A stretch of 57,385 nucleotides of DNA from Thermoleophilia bacterium (GTDB lineage: Bacteria; Actinomycetota; Thermoleophilia; Gaiellales; SKUG01). Location: the NCBI GenBank assembly GCA_039811765.1, contig JBDHZF010000002.1, positions 1-57,385 on the forward strand, read 5' to 3'. This document shows positions 12,464 to 24,494 of this stretch, in pieces; the stretch's first letter is position 1; every line of letters begins with the position of its first letter. Made by a program: the position numbers and the translations under genes. The notes beneath the pieces are model-generated. The model ran no database searches. It saw nothing but the letters and a program-made list of their open reading frames with translations, and had not been told where the DNA came from.

Positions 12464-13411
12464 ATGGACGACGCACCCATCGATGAAGACGGCCATCCGA
12501 GCAACCTCGAGGACATGGCTGCCCCCGGCGAAGAGCCTGCATTCACCAGTGAAATACCAGTTTCGAACCTTGCTGGGGAAATGGCCTCCGATCGCGCGGA
12601 GATCCTCGCGACTCGCCCTGTTCACGAGTTCGTTGCAGAGGCGCGAATCCGCGTTCCCACGCGCGGCAACCGCGTGCTCGAACAAGTGATCCAGCGCGTC
12701 AACGCCGACGACGAGCTGCGCACGTGGTGGCACATCGGCAACCTCAATGCCGTCACCCGCATGGGCATGAACGACCACTCCTGGGTGCACATGCAGGTGG
12801 TGACGAACATCGGGCTGAAGCTGCTGCGACTGCTGGCGCGCGCAGGCGTGCGCCCCGCGATGGTCACCGATTATGGCCTGACGCAGAAGGAAGCCGAGGT
12901 CGTGGTGGTGCTCGGCTGCCTGCTGCACGACGTGGGCATGAGCGTGCACCGAATCGGCCACGAGGAGTTCAGCCTGTTCTTGGCCGACCGCAAGGCGCAT
13001 CAGCTGCTCGACGGACTGTACGACGAGATCACCACCACGGTCGTGGTGAGCGAGGCGCTCCAGTCGATCATCTCCCATCGCAGCGAAGGACGCCCGCTCG
13101 CGATCGAAGCCGGAGTCGTGCGCGTCGCGGATTCGCTCGACATGACCCATGGCCGATCGCGGATTCCCTTCGAGCAGGGGTCGCTGTCGATCCATGCGCT
13201 TAGCGCCGCGGCCGTGGATCGCGTCCGCCTCACGCCAGGCCGCGAACGCGCGATCGCCGTGGAGATCGAGATGAACAACTCGTCTGGCGTGTTCCAAGTG
13301 GACGAGCTGCTGCGCAAGAAGCTGAAGGGCTCCGGGCTCGAGCAGCACGTCGAGATCCAAGTGAGCGTTCACGAGAACGAGAAACGCCTGCTCGACCGCT
13401 TCACGCTCTGA
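12464..13411 (+). CDS. HD-domain metal-dependent phosphohydrolase
   Basis: ATG 12464 preceded by GGGGAAGGAAAG. HD motif GCLLHDVGMSVHRIGHEEF and a later DSLD motif. High GC3. Confidence 0.8.
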   Translation: MDDAPIDEDGHPSNLEDMAAPGEEPAFTSEIPVSNLAGEMASDRAEILATRPVHEFVAEARIRVPTRGNRVLEQVIQRVNADDELRTWWHIGNLNAVTRMGMNDHSWVHMQVVTNIGLKLLRLLARAGVRPAMVTDYGLTQKEAEVVVVLGCLLHDVGMSVHRIGHEEFSLFLADRKAHQLLDGLYDEITTTVVVSEALQSIISHRSEGRPLAIEAGVVRVADSLDMTHGRSRIPFEQGSLSIHALSAAAVDRVRLTPGRERAIAVEIEMNNSSGVFQVDELLRKKLKGSGLEQHVEIQVSVHENEKRLLDRFTL

Positions 13412-13661
13412 TCCCCTCCCCCAGCTTGGTCATCCAGCGTCACGAAAAACGACACGCTCGAGGACGAACCTTGGGAAAAGGGGCTGGGAACGGGTGTTTC
13501 ATCGAATTGCGGCCATGACGTAGGCCGCCGCGGCCTGCAACTGGCCGCTTTCGCGCTTCGATGTTCCGGGTGAAGCATCAGAGCGTGCCCTTCGGCGGCC
13601 GACGCGTTCCGCGCATCGACCACGCCGTCGTCCGGCCCGCACGACCAAGGAGGACGAGGAC

Positions 13662-13949
13662 ATGAGCTTCCTCGACTACCTGGACGAGCATCGGGGCGAG
13701 TACATCGACCACCGAGCGTCCAAACCGCTCCACCAGGGCGTGCCTGCCCAGGAGGCGGAAGACCTGCTCGCCGACGCCGGATTCGCCAGGTCCGTCGAAG
13801 GCGGCGGAGCATCGACGCGCTCGCGCAAGCGTCGCCCCCGGTACCAGTCGCCGGGGATCCGCTTCCGCCACATCCGTCCAGCGTTCGCGCCATCCCCCTA
13901 CTCCGATCCGTTGCCCTACGAAGAACCATGGGAGCGCGCCTTCCGATGA
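13662..13949 (+). CDS. small hypothetical protein (95 aa)
   Basis: Strong RBS AAGGAGGA 7 nt before the ATG. Its stop overlaps the next start (ATGA at 13946-13949). No recognisable domain. Confidence 0.6.
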   Translation: MSFLDYLDEHRGEYIDHRASKPLHQGVPAQEAEDLLADAGFARSVEGGGASTRSRKRRPRYQSPGIRFRHIRPAFAPSPYSDPLPYEEPWERAFR

Positions 13950-14584
13950 CGACCATGCCTCGACTTCGCCGCCGCGTGCGGCTCGCCGATCCGATCCGTC
14001 GATCCGCGGCGGCCACCTCGACCACGCCCCTGCTCCGGCGGTTCCAGGACAACGCCGATCGCGCCGCGGATGCCGCCGATTCCAGTGACGAGAGCTTGCA
14101 GCGTTACGACCGGCTGCTCGCCGAGGAAGCGGACCTGTGTGCGGTTCCACCCGACCTGCTGCGAGCGATCTGTTGGTACGCGAGCGGCTGGCGCCAGTTC
14201 GAGCCGTCCGGCCGCACGCTAGCGACCCCGGACGCCCACGGCACGCGCTGGGGCTGCATGCAGCTGTCCGACCACTGGCACCCCGACGCGTTCCCCGCGG
14301 CGACGAGCGACTCGCGCGCCAACATCCGGTACGCCGGCAACCTGCTCAACTGGCTGCACGAGCAGACGGGATCGTGGCAACGCGCAACCGTTGCGTTCTT
14401 CGGTCACGATGCTCGAGCCGAGCAGGCGGCGCGACGCGTGCAACGGTATCGCGAGCTGCGCCCGTGGCTGTCGCGGCTTCCGCAAGCCCCGTCGCCGCAG
14501 GTACCGGATCGCGAGGAGCCGACCGCATCGCAGCCGCAGTCGCTCGACGGTTACGACGACCTGTACGCGGAGCTCGCGCTCTGA
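13946..14584 (+). CDS. SLT (family 1 lytic transglycosylase)-like protein; catalytic Glu apparently replaced
   Basis: LLRAICWYASGWRQF ... WGCMQLSD ... ANIRYAGNLLNWL aligns with the SLT motifs ES / GLMQ / N-x-x-x-G-x-x-Y-L, but it carries AS where ES is expected. Translationally coupled to 13662-13949. Confidence 0.6.
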   Translation: MTTMPRLRRRVRLADPIRRSAAATSTTPLLRRFQDNADRAADAADSSDESLQRYDRLLAEEADLCAVPPDLLRAICWYASGWRQFEPSGRTLATPDAHGTRWGCMQLSDHWHPDAFPAATSDSRANIRYAGNLLNWLHEQTGSWQRATVAFFGHDARAEQAARRVQRYRELRPWLSRLPQAPSPQVPDREEPTASQPQSLDGYDDLYAELAL

Positions 14585-14608: not shown

Positions 14609-15268
14609 CTACCGCGGCTCGTGACCGCTCAGCAGGAACGCGTCGATCGCCTTTGCGTGCTTGCCCGCGCCGCCGCCGTTGACGAGCGCGACCACGCCCG
14701 AACCGTCGTCGTGCCGATACGCCGCCAGTCGCTGCGTGCTGCGGCCGTGATCGGATTTCCACGTGAAGGTATAGTCGAGGTAACGGATCCCGTCTGCGCC
14801 GGGTCGCATCTTCGCGTCGACCTTCTCGAATCCGCGGTACTTGCTCGGCAGCTCGTCGTCGAGCCGCCCTTCGAACGCCGCGAGCTGCGGGAGCGAACTC
14901 GCGCCCGACCCGGTGTACGCCAAGAACGTGACCTTCACGTCGCCCTTGCAATCGCCACCGCTCGAGCCACCTGGACACACGCCACTGACCACGCTCGACA
15001 GTCGCTTCGCCGCCGCGTCTTGCTCGGCCGCCGCCGCGCTCGCGCCCAAGCGTCCCCATGCAGCCGGCAGCTCAAATTGCACGCCGCCCGCGATCAGCTC
15101 CTCGGGTGGCGCCGCGAGATGCACTTCGTGCGCTCCGCCCTTGCCGGGCAGTCGATCGGCCAGCTTCGCTGCGGTGTCGCTCTTCAGCAGGATCGGCGAA
15201 GAGAAGGACGCCGCGACGAGCGTGACGAGCGCGGTCGCGCGAGCAGATGCAAGAAGGTCGATGGCCAC
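14609..15268 (-). CDS. secreted hypothetical protein, last gene of the minus-strand surface operon
   Basis: GTG 15268 gives VAIDLLASARATALVTLVAASFSS, which looks like a signal peptide. The ORF is open to 15385. High GC3. No known domain recognised. Confidence 0.55.
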   Translation of the reverse strand: MAIDLLASARATALVTLVAASFSSPILLKSDTAAKLADRLPGKGGAHEVHLAAPPEELIAGGVQFELPAAWGRLGASAAAAEQDAAAKRLSSVVSGVCPGGSSGGDCKGDVKVTFLAYTGSGASSLPQLAAFEGRLDDELPSKYRGFEKVDAKMRPGADGIRYLDYTFTWKSDHGRSTQRLAAYRHDDGSGVVALVNGGGAGKHAKAIDAFLLSGHEPR

Positions 15269-15402
15269 AGGCGAGTGTCTGTTCTGTGCAGGCGAGCACG
15301 CCAGTCGGCTCCCTCCACCCGAACCCCATCGGCAGTTTGTTGCAGATTGTTGAGTACGATATGGGAAATTGGTGAAGACGGTCAAACGCTCGAATATCGA
15401 GG

Positions 15403-16560
15403 TCAGTATGACGACGAATCGTCGTCATCGTCCGCTCGCGCTTCGGCGGCGTCCACGCGTGCAAGCAACTCGCGATACCGCCGCTTCGACCGACGTCGCA
15501 GCCACACTGGAATCGCGATCGCCAACACGAGCGCAAGCAGGTACCACCATGATGGGATCACCCAAATCGGATCGAGTTGCTGCGTGTGCGTGCGACCACG
15601 AGCATCGGTCACGACGATCGTCGGCCGGAAGCGACCCACGAACGGGATGTCCTTCGACCATGTCGCCTCGAACGACCGCGCCGAATCGCGCATCACTAGC
15701 CGCTTGGGAACGTCGAGCGTCGTCACCTCGCGTCCACCGAGCGTGCTCGTGATCTCCACCGATCCGCCGGGTTCGTCCGACACGGATCCGGTGTTGCGCC
15801 ACTTCCAACGAATCGGGGCGATGCCCGCACTGCGCACGCGCTCGAGCACCGGAATCTTCCCAAGGTCGAATCCGTCCCACCACACCACGCGAGGCGAGCG
15901 AACGTCGATGATCTCGCCGCCCTCGGTGATGTCGCCGGGAACATCGAAGAACACCTGCACGACGACGGCCGACGAGACTTGCGCCTGTGTGCCCTTCGTA
16001 TGGGTGACTTCGCCGCCATCGGCCGCGGACACGCCGGCGTACGCGCTGCCGCCCGCCGTGTCGGCAGGAATATCGACTGCGACGTCCATCCAGATGATGT
16101 CGCCATGCTGGAGCGACTCAGTGTGATTCGTGGGCAGCGTGAGCCATGCCCCAGCGCCGTGCTCCGCGTCGTCCAACCCGACCGGAACGGGAGAACCGTC
16201 CATCGACGCGCCGAAATCGCTCGTGTCGAAGCGAAGCGTGATCGGCGCGCCCGTGCGATTCTGGAATCCGATGCAGATCGTGCCGGATTGCCCGGGCGCG
16301 AAATCCGTGGTGAGGCGATCGGGAAGCCCAGCGATTCCGCCAGTGACGTCTGTCTGCTCCGGATGCTGGATGTAGACGCCCGGCGAGCGCTCGACGTACT
16401 TCGTGCTCGTGCCGTCGAGCATCGCGCGGCAAGACGTCGCGTTCGGATCGCTTGCCGCGACCGCCGTCGACGCGCCGCCCACGGAGGAACAGACGATGCA
16501 TAGCGACGCTGCGACGAACGATGTCGCGAGCGACGTGACGAACTTGCGACGGATGCTCAC
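15403..16560 (-). CDS. module B1: signal peptide + two beta-rich domains + C-terminal TM anchor (DUF916/DUF3324-like architecture)
   Basis: 385 aa. N-terminal signal SLATSFVAASLCIVCSSVGGASTAVA. C-terminal IPSWWYLLALVLAIAIPVWLRRRSKRR followed by an acidic tail. Paralogous to 18378-19400 and 20151-21263. Confidence 0.8.
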   Translation of the reverse strand: MSIRRKFVTSLATSFVAASLCIVCSSVGGASTAVAASDPNATSCRAMLDGTSTKYVERSPGVYIQHPEQTDVTGGIAGLPDRLTTDFAPGQSGTICIGFQNRTGAPITLRFDTSDFGASMDGSPVPVGLDDAEHGAGAWLTLPTNHTESLQHGDIIWMDVAVDIPADTAGGSAYAGVSAADGGEVTHTKGTQAQVSSAVVVQVFFDVPGDITEGGEIIDVRSPRVVWWDGFDLGKIPVLERVRSAGIAPIRWKWRNTGSVSDEPGGSVEITSTLGGREVTTLDVPKRLVMRDSARSFEATWSKDIPFVGRFRPTIVVTDARGRTHTQQLDPIWVIPSWWYLLALVLAIAIPVWLRRRSKRRYRELLARVDAAEARADDDDDSSSY

Positions 16561-16599
16561 AGAGCCAACGCTACCCCGGGCACCTGTGCTCGAATCAGA

Positions 16600-17358
16600 T
16601 CAGTTCGCCGTCACGGCATACGTCGTCTGCACGAGGTAACTCGTGCTCGCCGGCTGCGCCGAACCCGGGTTCACGCGATAGTCGACGGTCACGTCGCCGT
16701 CCGTCATGGACGAGGTGGCGCACACGGTCTGCCCGTTCACAATGGCGTCGGTGTTCTGCTGGAGTCCGTGCCGGTTCGAGTTCGCTGCCATGCCGCCGGT
16801 GCAGGTGCCGCCGTTCACGGTGAGGGCGATACCGAACTTGCCGGATGTCGCCGTCTCCCCTTGCCCGAACTGGCCAGCGCCAGTGCCCGGCGCCTCGCCA
16901 GTCGCCACGTCGACGTCCGTGAACTGGGCGGCTGGGCCGGGACACGTCACCGTGGCCGCTGCGTCGCAGAACGAGTTCGCTCCGCTGGCGCGAGTGCTCT
17001 CGACCAGCAGCGTCGCGCCAAGCGCGCTGTTGTTGCTGCCGAACGTGAGGCGACACGTGGCGAGCGATACGTCGCCGTCGGAAGTGGAGAGCGTGGTGCC
17101 CGTGAAGTTCTTCGTCGACGTGCTGCCGGAGACAGGACCACACAATCCCGCATCGTCCAAGTTCACGTGTACTTCTTTGGACACTGTCGCGCCAACCGTG
17201 ACCGATGATGTGGTTGCCGCCGTGGATCGCGGCACGAGCCCGAAGCCAGTGGCGGCGAGCAGTCCCGCGACGATCAACGCAGCCGCCGGCAGCCACATGA
17301 GCAGCCGCGGATCCAAGGGGATGGGCAGTTGTTTCGCGCGTGTCGTGGACATCGGCAT
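16600..17358 (-). CDS. module A1: small secreted Cys-rich beta-type protein
   Basis: 252 aa, RBS GAGG before the ATG, hydrophobic leader LLMWLPAAALIVAGLLAATGFGL. Motif CRLTFGSNNSALGATLLVE is shared with A2 and A3. Has 7 Cys. Confidence 0.8.
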   Translation of the reverse strand: MPMSTTRAKQLPIPLDPRLLMWLPAAALIVAGLLAATGFGLVPRSTAATTSSVTVGATVSKEVHVNLDDAGLCGPVSGSTSTKNFTGTTLSTSDGDVSLATCRLTFGSNNSALGATLLVESTRASGANSFCDAAATVTCPGPAAQFTDVDVATGEAPGTGAGQFGQGETATSGKFGIALTVNGGTCTGGMAANSNRHGLQQNTDAIVNGQTVCATSSMTDGDVTVDYRVNPGSAQPASTSYLVQTTYAVTAN

Positions 17359-17567
17359 GTCACAAAACCTCGATGGTCGGCGATCGATCGATGTTGATGT
17401 CGGCAGTCTCGCGCCGCACCTTGAGGCGCGACGATCGGATCGAGCCGATCGATCTCGTCGCGCTCAAGCTCTCGACCTCGGTTGCCGACAAGGACCTCGA
17501 CGCGGCACGCCGCCGAGCTGACGGCCACCCCGAACCGAGCATGGAAGCACGACAAGGAGTTCAGCCC
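17359..17567. promoter_or_regulatory. divergent promoter region between the A1-B1 and A2-B2-A3-B3 operons, rich in GATC/CGATCG palindromes
   Basis: CGATCGATCGATG and GATCGGATCGAGCCGATCGATC lie inside a 209-nt divergent intergenic region. No promoter consensus could be assigned. Confidence 0.4.
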
Positions 17568-18290
17568 ATGAGCGCCAAGCAGCGAATGCCGAAGCGAACA
17601 GCCCGCCTGATTGCGTTCGGCCCAGCATTGGTGATTGCCTGCGTCACCGCGTACGCAGCATCGGGCGTGTCGCTCGTGGGAAGCGCAACGGGCGCCGCCA
17701 CGGTCGGCGTCACCGGATCGGTGTCGTCGAGCTTCTCCACCACCCCAGGCACCACCGGCGGTTCCGGCGCCACGGGCTGCGCGGACGAGGCGATCGGCAC
17801 GAGCTTCGCGTCGGCGTTCGCCGCGTCGAACGGCTGCACGGTGACGTGGAGCTCGAACAACGCAACCGGATCGGAAGTGGTGTTCGAGAACGACAACGCT
17901 GGCGCCGTGGACTTCTTCTGTGCCGACCCGGACGGCGCCGGCGCATTGCCGCGAAGCTGCGCCGCCGACGGCAACACCGTCGACGACTTGACGGGTTCGG
18001 GCAATCAGCTGGTCGCGCAGGGCTTCGGCTTGGCGCTCGTCAACACCACCGGTGGCGACGGCGCGACCGCGGGCACGGGCGTGTCGGCCGCCGACGCCTC
18101 TCCCGCCGACACCGACAGCATCTGGGCGGGAATCCCCGACCAGGGCAGCGCGGTGCAGTTGTGCCGATACGGCAGCGCGAACGCCACGACGTCGAGCTGC
18201 AACTTCGTGTTCGGCGCGCTCGGCAAGGGCGCAACGCAGGGCGCTGGCGACTACAGCGGCACGCTGCGGTTGACCGCGCAGCTCACCTGA
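17568..18290 (+). CDS. module A2: small secreted Cys-rich beta-type protein
   Basis: ATG 17568 preceded by AAGGAG. Leader RTARLIAFGPALVIACVTAYAASG. Motif CTVTWSSNNATGSEVVFEN. Has 6 Cys after the leader. C-terminus CNFVFGALGKGATQGAGDYSGTLRLTAQLT. Confidence 0.8.
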   Translation: MSAKQRMPKRTARLIAFGPALVIACVTAYAASGVSLVGSATGAATVGVTGSVSSSFSTTPGTTGGSGATGCADEAIGTSFASAFAASNGCTVTWSSNNATGSEVVFENDNAGAVDFFCADPDGAGALPRSCAADGNTVDDLTGSGNQLVAQGFGLALVNTTGGDGATAGTGVSAADASPADTDSIWAGIPDQGSAVQLCRYGSANATTSSCNFVFGALGKGATQGAGDYSGTLRLTAQLT

Positions 18291-18377
18291 GTTCGATGCA
18301 CGACAACGGCTTGTTCGGGCGGCGCTTCGCATGTGCGGGTGCCGCTCGAGCCGTTTCGGGGTAGGGCATTGCTCGGC

Positions 18378-19400
18378 ATGGATCGAATCGCACCGTTGAT
18401 CGTTCGAGTCGTCGCGCTTGCGGCGCTGTTCTGCGCGCTGCTGACCGTTGGCGCATCATCCGCTGCGTGGGCGAAGATCGAGCGGACGCAGGGCACGCCG
18501 AGCGCGGATCCAACGGGCCGGCTCTTCATCTCGCCTGGGCGCGTCGAATCGGACGTGCAACCCGGCGTGGCAACGAGCATCCCGGTCACGTTGACCAACG
18601 ACTCCGACGGCCCGTTCGACGTGTCGGTTCGGGCAACCGATCTCGGGCAGGCAACCGATCCACGAAGCGTGGCGACCTCGGTCGAGGACGGAGAGTTCGG
18701 CGCGGGCGACTGGATCCAGCCGGAGATCTCCGACATTCGGCTCGAACCGTTCGAGACGATCACGTTCGACCTGCTGGTCAACCCACCCGTGGACGCGCCG
18801 ATCGGAACGAACCTTGCCGGTTTGATCGTCGATTCCACCGACGCGGACGGACCCGTCGGCACAGCGGACACCACATCGATGTTCCGCATCGAGGGGTTGA
18901 TCCAGGTTTTCCTCACCGTTCCGGGTCCGGTGAAGCACGACCTGACGATCACGGATGTTGCCGTGCGCGACACCGTGATCCTCGGCGGTCAGCGATTCGC
19001 GGTGTGGGACGTAACGTTCCGCAACGACGGCACCGTGAACGAGCACGTGTCGGGGACGGTCTCGATTCGAAGCATGTTTGGCAACGCCGCGCACCGCGAG
19101 AAGATCGCCAACTTGCTGGTGCTGCGCGGCGCGACCCGCACCACCCGCGTGATCTGGCGCGACCTTCCATGGGTGGGCGCGTTCACCCCGGAAGTTCGCG
19201 TGCGCGGCGACGACGCGAAGCTGATGACCAAGACCGGCGATCGCGTGATCGTCCTGCCATGGTGGCTTCCGGTGCTGCTCGTGCTCGCGGTGCTGGTGCC
19301 GATCTTGGTGATCTGGTGGCGTCGACGGCAGGAGTGGAAGCTGTACCTCGAAGCCGAGGAAGACGACGGCTCGTTCGAACACGGCGGCGGCGCATACTGA
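18378..19400 (+). CDS. module B2: signal peptide + two beta-rich domains + C-terminal TM anchor
   Basis: MDRIAPLIVRVVALAALFCALLTVGASSAAWA signal. C-terminal VLPWWLPVLLVLAVLVPILVIWWRRRQ plus an acidic tail. ORF open to 18333. Confidence 0.8.
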   Translation: MDRIAPLIVRVVALAALFCALLTVGASSAAWAKIERTQGTPSADPTGRLFISPGRVESDVQPGVATSIPVTLTNDSDGPFDVSVRATDLGQATDPRSVATSVEDGEFGAGDWIQPEISDIRLEPFETITFDLLVNPPVDAPIGTNLAGLIVDSTDADGPVGTADTTSMFRIEGLIQVFLTVPGPVKHDLTITDVAVRDTVILGGQRFAVWDVTFRNDGTVNEHVSGTVSIRSMFGNAAHREKIANLLVLRGATRTTRVIWRDLPWVGAFTPEVRVRGDDAKLMTKTGDRVIVLPWWLPVLLVLAVLVPILVIWWRRRQEWKLYLEAEEDDGSFEHGGGAY

Positions 19401-19449
19401 GGCGAGCGCCTCAAGCGCATCGCTCCATGCGCCGATACCACACTGCAGG

Positions 19450-20103
19450 ATGGGAACCGTCACGCACATTCGCCACGCATCGCCGTGGGTGCCGCTCGCG
19501 ATCGCGTTGGCACTCGTGATCGGTTCGCTCGTGACCGGTCGCGGGCCGGAATCACCCGCAGCTGGCGCGACGGTCGTGCCAGTGACCGGTTCGAACGCGG
19601 CCGTGGTGTCGATCGACACCACAGGGTGCACGCCCGGATCAACGGCGATCGGGGAGCTCGTTCCCGGCACCGACCCGTGGAAGACTGCGCAGGACGAGGG
19701 CGGCGCCACCTGCTCGATCGACTTCGGAACGACGAACGGCACGCTCGGAGCCAATCTCGACGTGCTCGAGGATCCGAGCGCCCCGCCATCGCCGGCGGCG
19801 GCGATGAAGTGCACGGGCGGCGGCTGCAGCGGCCATGCCATCGCCGACTTCTCCGGCAGCGGCGAACCCGCGGCTGGAACGAGCGCGTTCGGCGCGCAGC
19901 TGCTCGGAGCAGGCAGCGGCGCGAGCGCGGTGTGGAGCGCCGCCCCGGCGGTTCACGCGATCGCCGACACGAGCGACACTGCGTGCCAGACTTCGGCGAT
20001 CGGCATGGGCAACTGCACGTTCACCTTCGGCGCGACCGCAGCGGCGTCCGACCCGGCCGGGTCGTACGAGGCGCAGGTTCGTTACGTGGTGCTCGCGCGC
20101 TGA
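19450..20103 (+). CDS. module A3: small secreted Cys-rich beta-type protein
   Basis: 217 aa. Leader WVPLAIALALVIGSLVTG. Motif CSIDFGTTNGTLGANLDVLE. Has 6 Cys. C-terminus CTFTFGATAAASDPAGSYEAQVRYVVLAR. Confidence 0.78.
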   Translation: MGTVTHIRHASPWVPLAIALALVIGSLVTGRGPESPAAGATVVPVTGSNAAVVSIDTTGCTPGSTAIGELVPGTDPWKTAQDEGGATCSIDFGTTNGTLGANLDVLEDPSAPPSPAAAMKCTGGGCSGHAIADFSGSGEPAAGTSAFGAQLLGAGSGASAVWSAAPAVHAIADTSDTACQTSAIGMGNCTFTFGATAAASDPAGSYEAQVRYVVLAR

Positions 20104-20150
20104 TCGATTCGCACGTTCCTGCAGCGCGGCACGCGGGAACGACTCCCGTC

Positions 20151-21263
20151 GTGCGAGCGTTCCTGCATCTCGGGGTGATCATCGGCGTGGCTGTTGCGAT
20201 GGCTTCACTCGCGAGCGGAGCAGCAGGCGCGGCGTCGGACGCGGACGACATTCCCAGCAAGCCCGTGACATCCGCGATCGATCGAGGCGACGACCCGGTC
20301 GTGGAACTCGCGCCAGCGAGACTGGACGACATCACGCTGGACCCTGGCGGCCAGCTGCGATTGGCGCTCGAGGTGCGCAACCGCACCGATTTCGCCGTAT
20401 CGTTGAAGCCAACCGTGATCGCGCTCGTTGGATCCACCGACCCAGGTTCGCTGGCATCGCCGGCCGCCGACGATTCGCGACGGAGCGAGGCCGTCGAGTG
20501 GGTGCGAATGCCGTTCGAGCGGTGGCCGTCGCTCGAACCAGGAACGGCCCTTCGATTTCCTGTGACGATCCAGGTGCCGGACGACGCCCGCCCCGGTTTG
20601 CACGCGCTGGGGCTCGGCGTGCAACGCCAGGTGACGGGCGCGTCGATCGGGGGCGTGGACACGAACGACGCGCACGTGCGCGTGACCGCGGACCTGCTCA
20701 GCGAGCTGCTGCTGACGGTGTCCGGCGACGCTCGCGCGCGCGTGCGCGTGAAGAACGTTGACGGACCGCGCTTCGTTCGCAGTGGCCATCCCGCCGAGTT
20801 TCGCGCCACGGCAGCAAACGACGGCGACACGCTGCTGCACATCGACTCGCAGGTGGAGCTCGGCGCGTTCTTGTCGACGGCCAGTCAGACGATTCCGATG
20901 CAAGGACCGAAGGACGGATATCCAACCTTGCCTCGCGGCGTGCGCGAACTTCGCCTGCGTTGGAGCGATCCGCCGCTCGTCGGGTGGTTCACGCCCACGC
21001 TCGTGGTGGTTGGCGGCGAGGGCAGCGGCGTGCGCGTCACACGGCAATTGGACACGGTGTTCGTGCTGCCGCCGTGGTGGCTCGTGTTGCTGGTCGTGTT
21101 CGCGATCTGGCTGCCGGTCCGCGCGTGGCGGCGTCGACGCCGCGTTCGTCATGCCACCGGTGCAGATCGTGAGCTCGCTCGAAGTCGCGTGGAGCAGCGA
21201 CTGCGCAAGCGGGATGCCAAGCAGCGAGCGCGCGACGCCCGGCGTCAGCCGCCGAGGCGCTGA
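20151..21263 (+). CDS. module B3: signal peptide + two beta-rich domains + C-terminal TM anchor
   Basis: GTG 20151 gives VRAFLHLGVIIGVAVAMASLASGAAGAAS. C-terminal VLPPWWLVLLVVFAIWLPVRAWRRRRR plus an Arg/Lys-rich tail. It is the in-frame part of the longer track ORF 19485-21263. Confidence 0.75.
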   Translation: MRAFLHLGVIIGVAVAMASLASGAAGAASDADDIPSKPVTSAIDRGDDPVVELAPARLDDITLDPGGQLRLALEVRNRTDFAVSLKPTVIALVGSTDPGSLASPAADDSRRSEAVEWVRMPFERWPSLEPGTALRFPVTIQVPDDARPGLHALGLGVQRQVTGASIGGVDTNDAHVRVTADLLSELLLTVSGDARARVRVKNVDGPRFVRSGHPAEFRATAANDGDTLLHIDSQVELGAFLSTASQTIPMQGPKDGYPTLPRGVRELRLRWSDPPLVGWFTPTLVVVGGEGSGVRVTRQLDTVFVLPPWWLVLLVVFAIWLPVRAWRRRRRVRHATGADRELARSRVEQRLRKRDAKQRARDARRQPPRR

Positions 21264-22681: not shown

Positions 22682-23221
22682 TCAGCTGGATCGAACGACG
22701 CGGTGCAGCCCGGCGAGCTCGATCGCGGCGCGCGCGGCGTCGCGGCCCACGTTGTGGCCGCCCTGGCCGAGCTGGGCGCGAGCCTTCGCCTGCTCCAGCG
22801 TGTCCACCGTGAGCAGGCCGAACCCGATCGGCAGGTCGTGCTCGAGCTGGACGCGCACGATGCCGTCGGTGGCGGCGCGGCATACGTAATCGAAGTGCGC
22901 GGTCTCGCCGCGAATCACGCAACCGAGCGCGATCACGCCGGCAACGCCGTGACTGGCCTCGGCCAGCGTCTTCGCAGCGAGCGGAATCTCGACCGCCCCC
23001 GGCACGCTCACGGCGCGAATGTGCTCCGGGCGAGCGCCCGACTCGAGCAGCTCGTCCACCGCGCCTTGGTACAGCGCGTCGGTGATCAGACCGTTGAATC
23101 GCGCGACGACGATGCCCCAGCGCGCACTGGCAGCGCTCGGAGCGAACTGCTCCACCGCGACGCCAGCATGGTCGAACGCGCCCTCGGAAGCAGGCGCGAA
23201 ATTGTGCCCATCAGCGGGCAA
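22682..23221 (-). CDS. ribH: 6,7-dimethyl-8-ribityllumazine synthase
   Basis: 179 aa. IVVARFNGLITDAL, VPGAVEIPLAA and ALGCVIRGETAHFDYV. Confidence 0.92.
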   Translation of the reverse strand: MPADGHNFAPASEGAFDHAGVAVEQFAPSAASARWGIVVARFNGLITDALYQGAVDELLESGARPEHIRAVSVPGAVEIPLAAKTLAEASHGVAGVIALGCVIRGETAHFDYVCRAATDGIVRVQLEHDLPIGFGLLTVDTLEQAKARAQLGQGGHNVGRDAARAAIELAGLHRVVRSS

Positions 23222-24494
23222 GCGACGGCTCCTGCTCCGGCGCCGCCGCTCCGTTGGCGCTGCCTTGCAGCGCGCCGGAGAGCGCGTCGTCGCTCAACAG
23301 GTGGCCGAGCCGATCGCGCTTGGTGGTGAGGTAGCTGCGGTTGGTGTCGCGCGCGGCGATCTCGAGCGGCAGTCGCGCGCTCACCGGAACGCGGTAGCGT
23401 TCGAGCTCGTCGACCTTGCGGGGGTTGTTGGTGAGCAGCTGCACCGACTGCACGCCGAGGTCGCGCAGGATGTGCGCCGCGGCGTGGAACTCGCGCGGGT
23501 CGGCGTCATGGCCCAGCTCGGTGTTCGCGTCCACGGTGTCGCGCCCGTTCTGTTGCAGCTCGTAGGCGCGCAGCTTGTCGAGCAAGCCGATGCCGCGCCC
23601 TTCCTGAGCCAAGTACACGAGCACGCCGCGTCCCGCCGACTCGATCTCGTCCATCGCGCGCTCGAGCTGTTCGCCACAGTCGCAGCGCAGCGAATGGAAC
23701 ACGTCGCCAGTGGCGCAGGAGCTGTGCACGCGAACGAGCACGTCCTCCGAGCCTGCGACGTCGCCCTTCACGAGCGCCATGTGCTCCAAGCCATCGACGG
23801 TGCCGCGGTAGCCGTACACCTCGAACTCGCCGCGACGGGTCGGCAGCGCGGCGCGCGCGGTGCGCTCCACGTGCAGCTCGGTGCGGCGGCGGTACTCGAT
23901 CATGTCCTCGATCGAGATCATCTTCAGATCGTGCTTCTTGGCGAACTCGAGCAGCTCGGGTACACGAGCCATCGTGCCGTCGTCGTTCATGACCTCGCAG
24001 ATCACGCTGGCCGGCTCGAGCCCCGCGAGCTTGGCCATGTCGACGCTTCCCTCGGTCTGACCGGTGCGCTCGAGCACGCCGTGCGGCTTGGCGCGCAGCG
24101 GGAACACGTGACCAGGGCGGTCGAGGTCCTCGGGGCGGCACTTCGGATCGGCGGCGACGCGGATCGTGTGAGCGCGGTCCTCGGCGCTGATGCCCGTCGT
24201 CACGCCTTCCGCGGCTTCGATCGACACCGTGAACGCAGTCTCGAACCCGGCCTTGTTGCGCGGGTTCTGCAGTGGCAAGTCGAGCTGCTCGATGCGCTCG
24301 GGGCTGAGCGTGAGGCAGATCAGCCCGCGCGCCTCGATCGCCATGAACGTGATCTGCTCGGCGGTGACGTGCTGCGCGGCGACGCACACGTCACCCTCGT
24401 TCTCGCGATCTTCGTCGTCGACGATGATCACCATCTTGCCAGCGCGATAGTCCTCGATCGCGGCTTCGATGGAGTCGAACGGGGAGTCGGACAT
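23211..24494 (-). CDS. ribBA: bifunctional 3,4-dihydroxy-2-butanone-4-phosphate synthase / GTP cyclohydrolase II
   Basis: 427 aa. [12 protein letters not shown] (DHBPS) and [21 protein letters not shown] (GCH II zinc site). Confidence 0.92.

Follow-up and report, generated by a model that had tools for sequence, protein, structure and literature searches.

A triplicated gene pair of Thermoleophilia as a candidate usher-less chaperone-subunit surface assembly system

A contig of a Thermoleophilia bacterium (JBDHZF010000002.1, of which positions 1-57385 were analysed and are referred to here as the window) carries at 14609-21263 a module in which a small secreted cysteine-rich protein (A) and a membrane-anchored two-domain protein (B) are encoded as a pair, in three copies. 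The three A and the three B proteins form two paralogous families that have been conserved as a set in related genomes; the B proteins have the fold of membrane-anchored PapD-like chaperones, and the A proteins are modelled as pilin-like immunoglobulin-like (Ig-like) domains. The pairs very probably constitute a chaperone-subunit system that works by strand complementation. The fuller proposal, that the locus encodes an usher-less surface assembly system of a single-membrane cell and that its product is a fibre, is made tentatively and is given a little less than an even chance.

All seven open reading frames (ORFs) of the module are present (Table 1), the three A and three B genes lying at the coordinates assigned to them in a preliminary description of this DNA made from the sequence alone; the seventh ORF encodes another, probably secreted protein (C). 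Paralogy is plain for the B proteins, which in a BLASTP search of a database made up of the seven module proteins are 27-28% identical over about 280-310 residues, with expectation values (E) of 3e-21 for B1-B2 and 1e-12 for both B1-B3 and B2-B3, and which are matched by the B hidden Markov model (HMM) at 4e-86 (B1) and 1.3e-77 (B3). Pairwise similarity among the A proteins is weaker (A1-A3 4e-6, A1-A2 0.008, A2-A3 0.19). Their paralogy is secured by a single A-family HMM that matches all three at about 1e-34 to 1e-86 (A1 2.6e-44, A2 7.7e-34), together with their conserved position; invariant Cys, FG and Tyr positions are common to them.

The complete arrangement of three A and three B genes is also found in loci L001, L005, L006, L009 and L015, each with an A1 orthologue in the same position. 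Orthologues are about 50-77% identical compared with about 27% between paralogues, which makes the triplication seen in these Thermoleophilia and Gaiellales contigs an old one that predates the split of these lineages and has been kept since. In L003 (8339-13000) and L004 the genes A2-B2-A3-B3 and protein C are kept and the A1-B1 pair is missing, so that some lineages can do without the third pair. Among the 54 close homologues of B2, those that carry a name are all from metagenome-assembled genomes (MAGs) called 'Thermoleophilia bacterium', and three loci from GTDB are Thermoleophilia or Gaiellales MAGs. Scans of genomes and metagenomes, made with back-translated patterns specific to B2 orthologues, gave 3 and 2 loci, and a homologue search with a diverse alignment of 81 B sequences returned only close orthologues that were already known.

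Each B protein has a hydrophobic segment at both the N-terminus and the C-terminus by hydropathy, and regular-expression searches found [ILV]P-x-WW, a hydrophobic helix and then RRR in all three. The B2 structure predicted by AlphaFold2 (AF2) from a 37-sequence alignment (predicted local distance difference test, pLDDT, 90.7) consists of a helix (4-26), two beta domains (35-181 and 189-292) and a second helix (296-330), that is, a leader, two Ig-like sandwiches and a long C-terminal membrane helix. This is the architecture that had been read from the sequence, namely two beta-rich domains with an (I/L)P-x-WW-TM-RRR anchor (TM, transmembrane helix). In a Foldseek search of the PDB, the best matches of the B2 model were to WxLIP of Enterococcus faecium (9i1y and 9i25, the latter in complex with a WxL protein; E 7e-11 to 1.8e-10), followed by CfaA, CsuC, Caf1M, FimC, PapD and DraB (E 3e-9 to 3e-7; target template-modelling score, TM-score, 0.49-0.58). 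Both the chaperone-like character proposed for B and its likeness to the DUF916/DUF3324 proteins of Firmicutes are in this way recovered from structure.

At the level of families, neither the seven proteins nor the full alignments of their families gave anything above cut-off in Pfam and NCBIfam; PF06030 was matched by one of the 37 B-family members (E 0.083), and a search of PDB sequences with the B profile reached EfmWxLIP1 at no better than E 0.14. The profile is nonetheless that of a very large family, with 8225 relatives at E<=1e-3 and 3182 at E<=1e-10 in an HMM search of 1.84 billion cluster representatives, the taxonomic spread of which was sampled. Two of the distant relatives (P0180 and P0195) match PF06030/WxLIP_PGBD at E 1e-5, with 26 bits against a cut-off of 27.3, and the cluster of a third (P0170, B profile 5e-32) includes a protein of candidate division CPR2 that bears the UniRef name 'DUF916 domain-containing protein'. 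Other links lead to the Pam pili of the candidate phyla radiation (CPR), known from Candidatus Mycosynbacter amalyticus, in which the pilins PamA/B/E/T are served by the proposed chaperones PamC/PamD (WP_260763277.1, WP_260763284.1; bioRxiv 10.64898/2026.03.03.709456). The C-terminal part of P0195 is PamT-like (NF058579, 2.8e-8), and a fourth relative (P0171) is flanked by small genes matching PamT (5e-14) and Pam_pilin_C (9e-6, whole domain). On the strength of the fold matches and of the family links through P0170, P0180, P0195 and P0171, B represents a divergent lineage within the membrane-anchored, PapD-like DUF916/WxLIP family, with homology both to DUF916 and to the chaperones encoded in Pam-like operons. 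The B family also has conserved features of its own, including an ISPxRxE motif, a nearly invariant x-L-x-Q-x-F-L-T-V that forms the last strand of domain 1, and an invariant Arg in the first strand (R55 of B2), which presumably occupies the place of the subunit-carboxylate-binding Arg8 of PapD/FimC.

Each A protein has one hydrophobic segment, at its N-terminus, so that the leaders predicted for all six A and B proteins are borne out by hydropathy. The mature part contains six Cys at aligned positions and A2 has a seventh in its leader; the six to seven Cys and the lack of a WxL motif reported for A are therefore correct, W-x-L matches being confined to the membrane helix of B or the residues just after it. 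Of the sequence motifs ascribed to A, C-x-[LVI]-x-[FW]-[GS]-[ST]-x-N occurs in all three proteins by regular expression, although it lies mid-protein (residues 88-102) and not near the N-terminus, and F-x-FG and G-x-Y, which A2 and A3 have, are missing from A1.

In the AF2 model of A3 (pLDDT 91, from a 50-sequence alignment), a leader helix (14-29) is followed by a flexible segment (30-52) and then by nine strands within residues 53-216, and the chain terminates directly after the last of these (205-216). The flexible segment is of lower confidence and includes a conserved A-T-V-x-V-T-G-S, and it is the conserved residues 40-52 that stand immediately ahead of the first core strand. Conserved Cys (C60/C88) lie where the first strand ends and where the following one begins. 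Chaperone-usher pilus subunits or adhesin pilin domains, among them CfaE/CfaB, PapG, PapA, FimA/G/H, PsaA and HdaB, account for 28 of the top 50 Foldseek matches of A3 in the PDB. The best superposition is on chaperone-bound CsuA/B (6fq0_B, probability 0.93, target TM-score 0.57; 6fq0_D, target TM-score 0.59, root-mean-square deviation 4.2 A). For the fold of A, the evidence lies in this enrichment among weak matches to a predicted structure, none of them significant singly. The resemblance to SCPU/Csu subunits suggested earlier thus reappears as a likeness of fold, with weak E-values and with Pfam SCPU unmatched. Comparison of the A3 model with viral structures added no information, nor did the A profile yield any meaningful match among PDB sequences.

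No Pfam model, WxL and SCPU included, was matched at E<=0.1 by any of the 50 A-family members. The NCBIfam model CPR_Pam_pilin_C (NF058581) was weakly matched by 8 of the 50, and no other family recurs comparably. In an hhalign comparison with six small pilin-like sequences from the low-GC (guanine-cytosine) Pam-like loci L011, L013 and L014, the A profile aligned over 150 columns (E 2.9e-5, probability 74%), a stretch that includes the entire mature domain, N-terminal strand and C-terminal G-x-Y strand alike. With the single PamT-like tail of P0195, the alignment took in the last 29 residues only (E 0.098). The A6 HMM matches L014:6787-7473 over its full length (E 6e-4). A remote homology of A to Pam pilins is supported by the hhalign comparison only. 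Where A reads F-G-T-T-N-x-x-x-G-A-x-L, the Pam-like relatives read T-V-T-T-N-x-x-x-G-[W/Y]-x-L and one of them has G-W-K-L; the shared T-T-N...G-x-L motif may be connected with the first WxL motif, a possibility that is offered as a lead only.

The anatomy of the pairs, with a Sec-exported Ig-like A that has a strand-prone mature N-terminus and a chain ending at its last strand, and with a tethered PapD-like partner, follows a logic that has been proposed for Pam pili and, with the subunit capped, for WxL/WxLIP, and on this basis it is proposed that B lends a strand to A. In the proposed mechanism, A would be exported by Sec and its leader cut, probably after the conserved Ala right before T-V-x-V-T-G-S, and A would then fold outside the membrane as a disulfide-stabilised pilin-like Ig domain short of one strand. 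The cognate B, held in the membrane by its C-terminal helix with the RRR tail in the cytoplasm, would complete this fold at the membrane by lending a beta-strand, for which the last strand of domain 1 (x-L-x-Q-x-F-L-T-V; 170-181 in B2) is the candidate. The free N-terminal strand of the next A would displace the strand of B by donor-strand exchange, and a short hetero-polymeric fibre of A1, A2 and A3 could grow from its base and stay tethered through the last B-bound subunit. For the incomplete Ig fold and N-terminal donor strand that this scheme would require, the A3 model offers the conserved flexible segment and the share of chaperone-usher subunits among its fold matches, which are individually weak (best E 0.022). 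The preliminary description had suggested a self-contained system of this kind, which agrees with what is found around the genes, and Pam pili follow the same logic. The module itself holds no gene beyond A, B and C, and an usher is thus not among them; neither usher nor sortase nor secretion ATPase occurs among the precomputed Pfam matches for called genes in the sampled homologous loci, the window itself not having been scanned gene by gene, and no prepilin peptidase appears in the Pfam matches for the flanks of L001 and L003.

Several observations weigh against this proposal. Complementation between A and B is inferred from models of the two proteins taken singly. No PDB structure matches A3 at E<1e-3, the similarity of A3 to NF058581 (E 0.0025) misses the curated cut-off with 17.9 bits against 55, and B1-B3 reach no curated family model, having no match in Pfam or NCBIfam, PF06030 and PF11797 included. 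The A proteins have neither the two-domain build of PamA/PamB nor the Trp-x-Leu motifs of WxL proteins. An HMM search of the window yielded neither a tip adhesin nor a terminator like PamR, nor any large protein ending in an A domain. Finally, a strict 1:1 ratio of A to B is unusual for pili, in which one chaperone serves several subunits, and suits stable heterodimers equally well or better.

The last of these points leads to the main alternative, which is that each B permanently caps its own A, so that the locus produces three B:A heterodimers as a static surface complex of the WxL/WxLIP type, with no donor-strand exchange and no fibre, that would serve in adhesion, cell-wall contact or envelope organisation. 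This is a serious possibility, if on balance a doubtful one. Of solved structures WxLIP comes nearest to B, the WxLIP-WxL complex 9i25 being among the matches, and a stable anchoring role has been modelled for WxLIP (PMC10599100); the 1:1 gene ratio has been maintained over a long divergence, as would suit dedicated heterodimers, and the window offers no tip or terminator subunit. However, all three A families keep a strand-like N-terminal segment ahead of the core that would be needless in a permanently capped protein. Moreover, the fold of A resembles the polymerising subunits of chaperone-usher systems, with the WxL chain of 9i25 outside the top 50 matches of A3, and the profile link of A is to Pam-like pilins of a filament-forming operon type.

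It could also be that A and B are functionally unrelated, with B an Ig-domain surface protein (an adhesin, cell-wall binder or spacer), A an independent Cys-rich secreted protein and the likenesses a consequence of how common Ig sandwiches are, but this is improbable. In its favour, the fold matches of A are individually non-significant, a solitary B-like paralogue without an A neighbour occurs in L010 and L012, and the B2 model also matches the two-Ig CEP192 SPD-2 protein, RbmA, hydin-type ciliary proteins and transglutaminase. The target TM-scores of these non-chaperone matches are only 0.07-0.30, in contrast to the 0.49-0.58 of the chaperones, and a share of chaperone-usher subunits as large as that found among the matches of A3 would be hard to obtain by chance. 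In addition, the adjacency of A and then B is kept in all pairs and in every Thermoleophilia-type locus examined, and B-like genes again adjoin pilin-like genes in distant low-GC and CPR loci. Although Actinomycetota usually build sortase or Tad pili, it is scarcely credible that these genes specify a Gram-positive pilus of the sortase or type IV/Tad kind, or represent a classical chaperone-usher locus taken over from a diderm, given that no LPXTG motif (LP.[TSA]G by regular expression) occurs in any A or B and no sortase among the neighbours' listed Pfam matches, that A has a Sec-type leader with its hydrophobic stretch before the cleavage region and not a class III pilin signal, that no usher, ATPase or prepilin peptidase is among the Pfam matches listed for the flanks of homologous loci, and that GC content is the same as in the surroundings and the synteny old and conserved.

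The genes of the proposed assembly system are arranged, as first described, as A-B pairs in two divergent operons. A precedes B in each pair, with gaps of 39 nucleotides (A1-B1), 87 (A2-B2) and 47 (A3-B3), and B2 and A3 are 49 nucleotides apart; these short gaps, the divergent spacer between A1 and A2 and an AAGGAG ribosome-binding site 8 nucleotides upstream of the ATG of A2 fit this reading. The promoters of both operons are presumed to lie in the spacer, in which no sigma-70 consensus match was found, a scan for promoters and terminators having given no more than is expected from shuffled sequence. GC content is 0.67-0.68 throughout the module, like the remainder of the window, and the conserved orthologues and high-confidence folds rule out chance ORFs. 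No Rfam family reached its gathering score anywhere in the window; ribH/ribBA are located at 22682-24494 on the minus strand, yet no flavin mononucleotide (FMN) riboswitch was detected by Rfam.

Table 1. Position and character of the module genes, the divergent spacer and the neighbouring SLT-like ORF
Feature	Position	Strand	Length	Description
SLT-like ORF	13928-14584	+		Pfam SLT (lytic transglycosylase) E 0.018, below cut-off; same position in L001 and L003
C	14609-15385	-		Start uncertain; one N-terminal hydrophobic segment
B1	15403-16560	-	385 aa	ORF; membrane-anchored two-domain chaperone-like protein; IPSWW-TM-RRR anchor
A1	16600-17358	-	252 aa	ORF; pilin-like small secreted subunit; N-terminal leader, six Cys
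Divergent spacer A1/A2	17359-17567	.	209 nt	From gene layout
A2	17568-18290	+	240 aa	ORF; pilin-like small secreted subunit
B2	18378-19400	+	340 aa	ORF; membrane-anchored two-domain chaperone-like protein; modelled B representative
A3	19450-20103	+	217 aa	ORF; pilin-like small secreted subunit; modelled A representative
B3	20151-21263	+	370 aa	ORF; membrane-anchored two-domain chaperone-like protein; LPPWW-TM-RRRRR anchor

Protein C, which matches no Pfam or NCBIfam family, had been assigned to the A1-B1 operon. Its homologues adjoin the module in L001 and likewise in L003 and L004, and since the latter two lack A1-B1, C behaves as a conserved neighbour that is probably not part of the A1-B1 unit, and it probably stands outside the mechanism of A and B. 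The sole sigma-70-like consensus match of the module (15385-15356 on the minus strand) falls within the annotated 5' end of C, and the homologues begin further downstream than the annotated start, which suggests that C probably has its own promoter and that its true start likely lies downstream of 15385, giving a shorter N-terminus. On the other side of C, the SLT-like protein, in which no hydrophobic leader is visible, may take part in cell-wall remodelling and is a putative associate of the module. A small ORF (13662-13949) overlaps the start of the SLT-like ORF by 22 nucleotides, and both are kept upstream in L001 and L003. In these two loci a gene for a methyl-accepting chemotaxis protein (MCP), accompanied in L003 by cheW, is situated between an HD-domain gene and the SLT-like gene (L001:3395-5407, L003:3980-5946); the window has no MCP gene at the corresponding place, the interval from 13411 to 13662 being only some 250 nucleotides long.

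Distant relatives of B occur in other layouts, of which the low-GC loci L011, L013 and L014 carry no taxonomic label and only L016 is labelled, as CPR2. The solitary B-like paralogue of L010 (7001-8527) and L012 (8001-9392), both contigs of Thermoleophilia/Gaiellales type, is longer than B (463-508 residues), has a cytoplasmic tail of about 150 residues after the TM helix, and adjoins genes for lgt, dsbD, thioredoxin and tetratricopeptide repeat (TPR) proteins, with no A-like neighbour. Large surface proteins with a pilin-like domain at the end are encoded beside B-like genes in L011 (8759-11014) and L016 (568-3684), one a Kelch/beta-propeller protein and the other of 1038 residues, matched by the A8 HMM at 6e-31 and 8e-5; they follow the logic of 'long WxL' proteins and of two-domain chaperone-usher tip adhesins, and have no counterpart in the Thermoleophilia module. 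On a contig of 32.5% GC, L013:410-2143 (P0195) is a 577-residue ORF that joins a B-like chaperone, TM helix included, to a PamT-like pilin domain, and may be a true fusion or else an artefact of sequencing or assembly that has run two genes together. In L016 (4465-7928; candidate division CPR2, GCA_000995565.1) two B-like chaperone genes, the first with the UniRef name DUF916 domain-containing protein, surround a gene for a 349-residue two-domain pilin-like protein ending AGTYTNQMTYSILANY.

Chaperone-usher pili are textbook structures of Gram-negative bacteria. Only one usher-free version with membrane-anchored chaperones has been shown to form filaments; its report dates from 2026, and it and its pilins were described as exclusive to the CPR (bioRxiv 10.64898/2026.03.03.709456). 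The present locus and the 8225-member B family indicate that the same assembly principle exists in free-living Actinomycetota, which at the superfamily level qualifies the statement of CPR exclusivity, and they bring under one framework with it the WxL/WxLIP clusters of Firmicutes, which have long been enigmatic. Full-text literature searches brought up no account of such a system from Actinobacteria; the term 'undescribed' applied to the module in the preliminary description accordingly holds for Actinomycetota and for this type of subunit but not more widely, since Pam pili have been described. A far-reaching and, on present evidence, rather unlikely extension would make WxL/WxLIP, Pam pili and the Thermoleophilia module branches of one ancient and widespread single-membrane pathway of usher-less donor-strand exchange, one that relies on membrane-anchored chaperones of the DUF916 type, these being homologues and perhaps ancestors of the periplasmic PapD-like chaperones of diderms, with a Thermoleophilia fibre of three subunits whose individual chaperones set the order of assembly. 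The module could offer a minimal system, with two proteins per subunit and no energy source, in which to study how donor-strand exchange is catalysed without an usher. It also provides a rationale for annotating thousands of 'hypothetical' proteins and points to an unexplored surface structure in Thermoleophilia, an abundant and poorly cultured class of soil bacteria.

Among known systems, Pam pili have in common with the module two-domain PapD-like chaperones with a C-terminal TM helix, Sec-exported Ig-like subunits with paired cysteines, and a single-membrane host in which there is neither usher nor ATPase; their chaperones are membrane-anchored, and the filaments are assembled by donor-strand exchange, a trait established by cryo-electron microscopy (bioRxiv 10.64898/2026.03.03.709456). 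Relatives of B are found in operons with PamT- and Pam_pilin_C-like genes, and it is to small pilins of such operons that A aligns at E 2.9e-5. The differences are substantial, however. A consists of one domain, with some 180 mature residues, whereas PamA/B/E have an N-terminal sandwich of nine strands joined by a linker donor strand to a C-terminal domain that is a truncated Ig; the NCBIfam models NF058581 and NF058579 are matched far under cut-off (17.9 against 55 bits); no gene for a PamR-like terminator or a PamT-like tip was found in the window; three dedicated 1:1 pairs stand in place of the two chaperones that serve five subunits in Pam; and the host belongs to Thermoleophilia (Actinomycetota) and not to the CPR.

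With the WxL/WxLIP (DUF916-DUF3324, Csc) systems of Firmicutes, the module shares the build of B, in which a leader and two Ig-like domains precede a C-terminal TM helix, and the nature of the partner, a small beta-sandwich that is secreted. No structure matches B better than WxLIP, sequence provides a transitive link to PF06030, and a strand of WxLIP is predicted to complete the sandwich of WxL (PMC10599100). On the other hand, the B proteins of the window do not reach PF06030 or PF11797 and lack the motif NQIDKxxxYFDLK conserved at the N-terminus of WxLIP (PMC10599100), a regular-expression search of B1-B3 for NQ[IV]D or YFD[LI] having given no match. In addition, A has no Trp-x-Leu and no WxL Pfam match, the locus contains neither a large WxL-type adhesin nor an LPXTG protein, and the ratio is 1:1 in place of one WxLIP to two WxL, a cluster of at least two WxL-domain proteins not being found.

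The archaic (sigma) chaperone-usher system Csu of Acinetobacter (6fq0, 6fqa, 7zl4) is the closest in terms of the subunit fold, CsuA/B giving the best target TM-scores for A3 (0.57-0.59), and its chaperone CsuC is among the top matches of B2. The mature N-terminus of A is strand-prone and its C-terminus has the Csu-like succession of G-x-Y and an alternating hydrophobic strand that ends the chain. In contrast, there is no outer membrane and no usher here, B is anchored in the membrane instead of being a soluble periplasmic chaperone, Pfam SCPU (PF05229) and PapD_N/C are not matched, and A has six conserved Cys. The module falls outside the curated definitions of WxLIP, Pam, chaperone-usher and sortase pili, even though its architecture clearly works like that of the first three. 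What is new in it is best described as single-domain, six-Cys subunits that each have a dedicated membrane-anchored chaperone, triplicated and housed in Actinomycetota.

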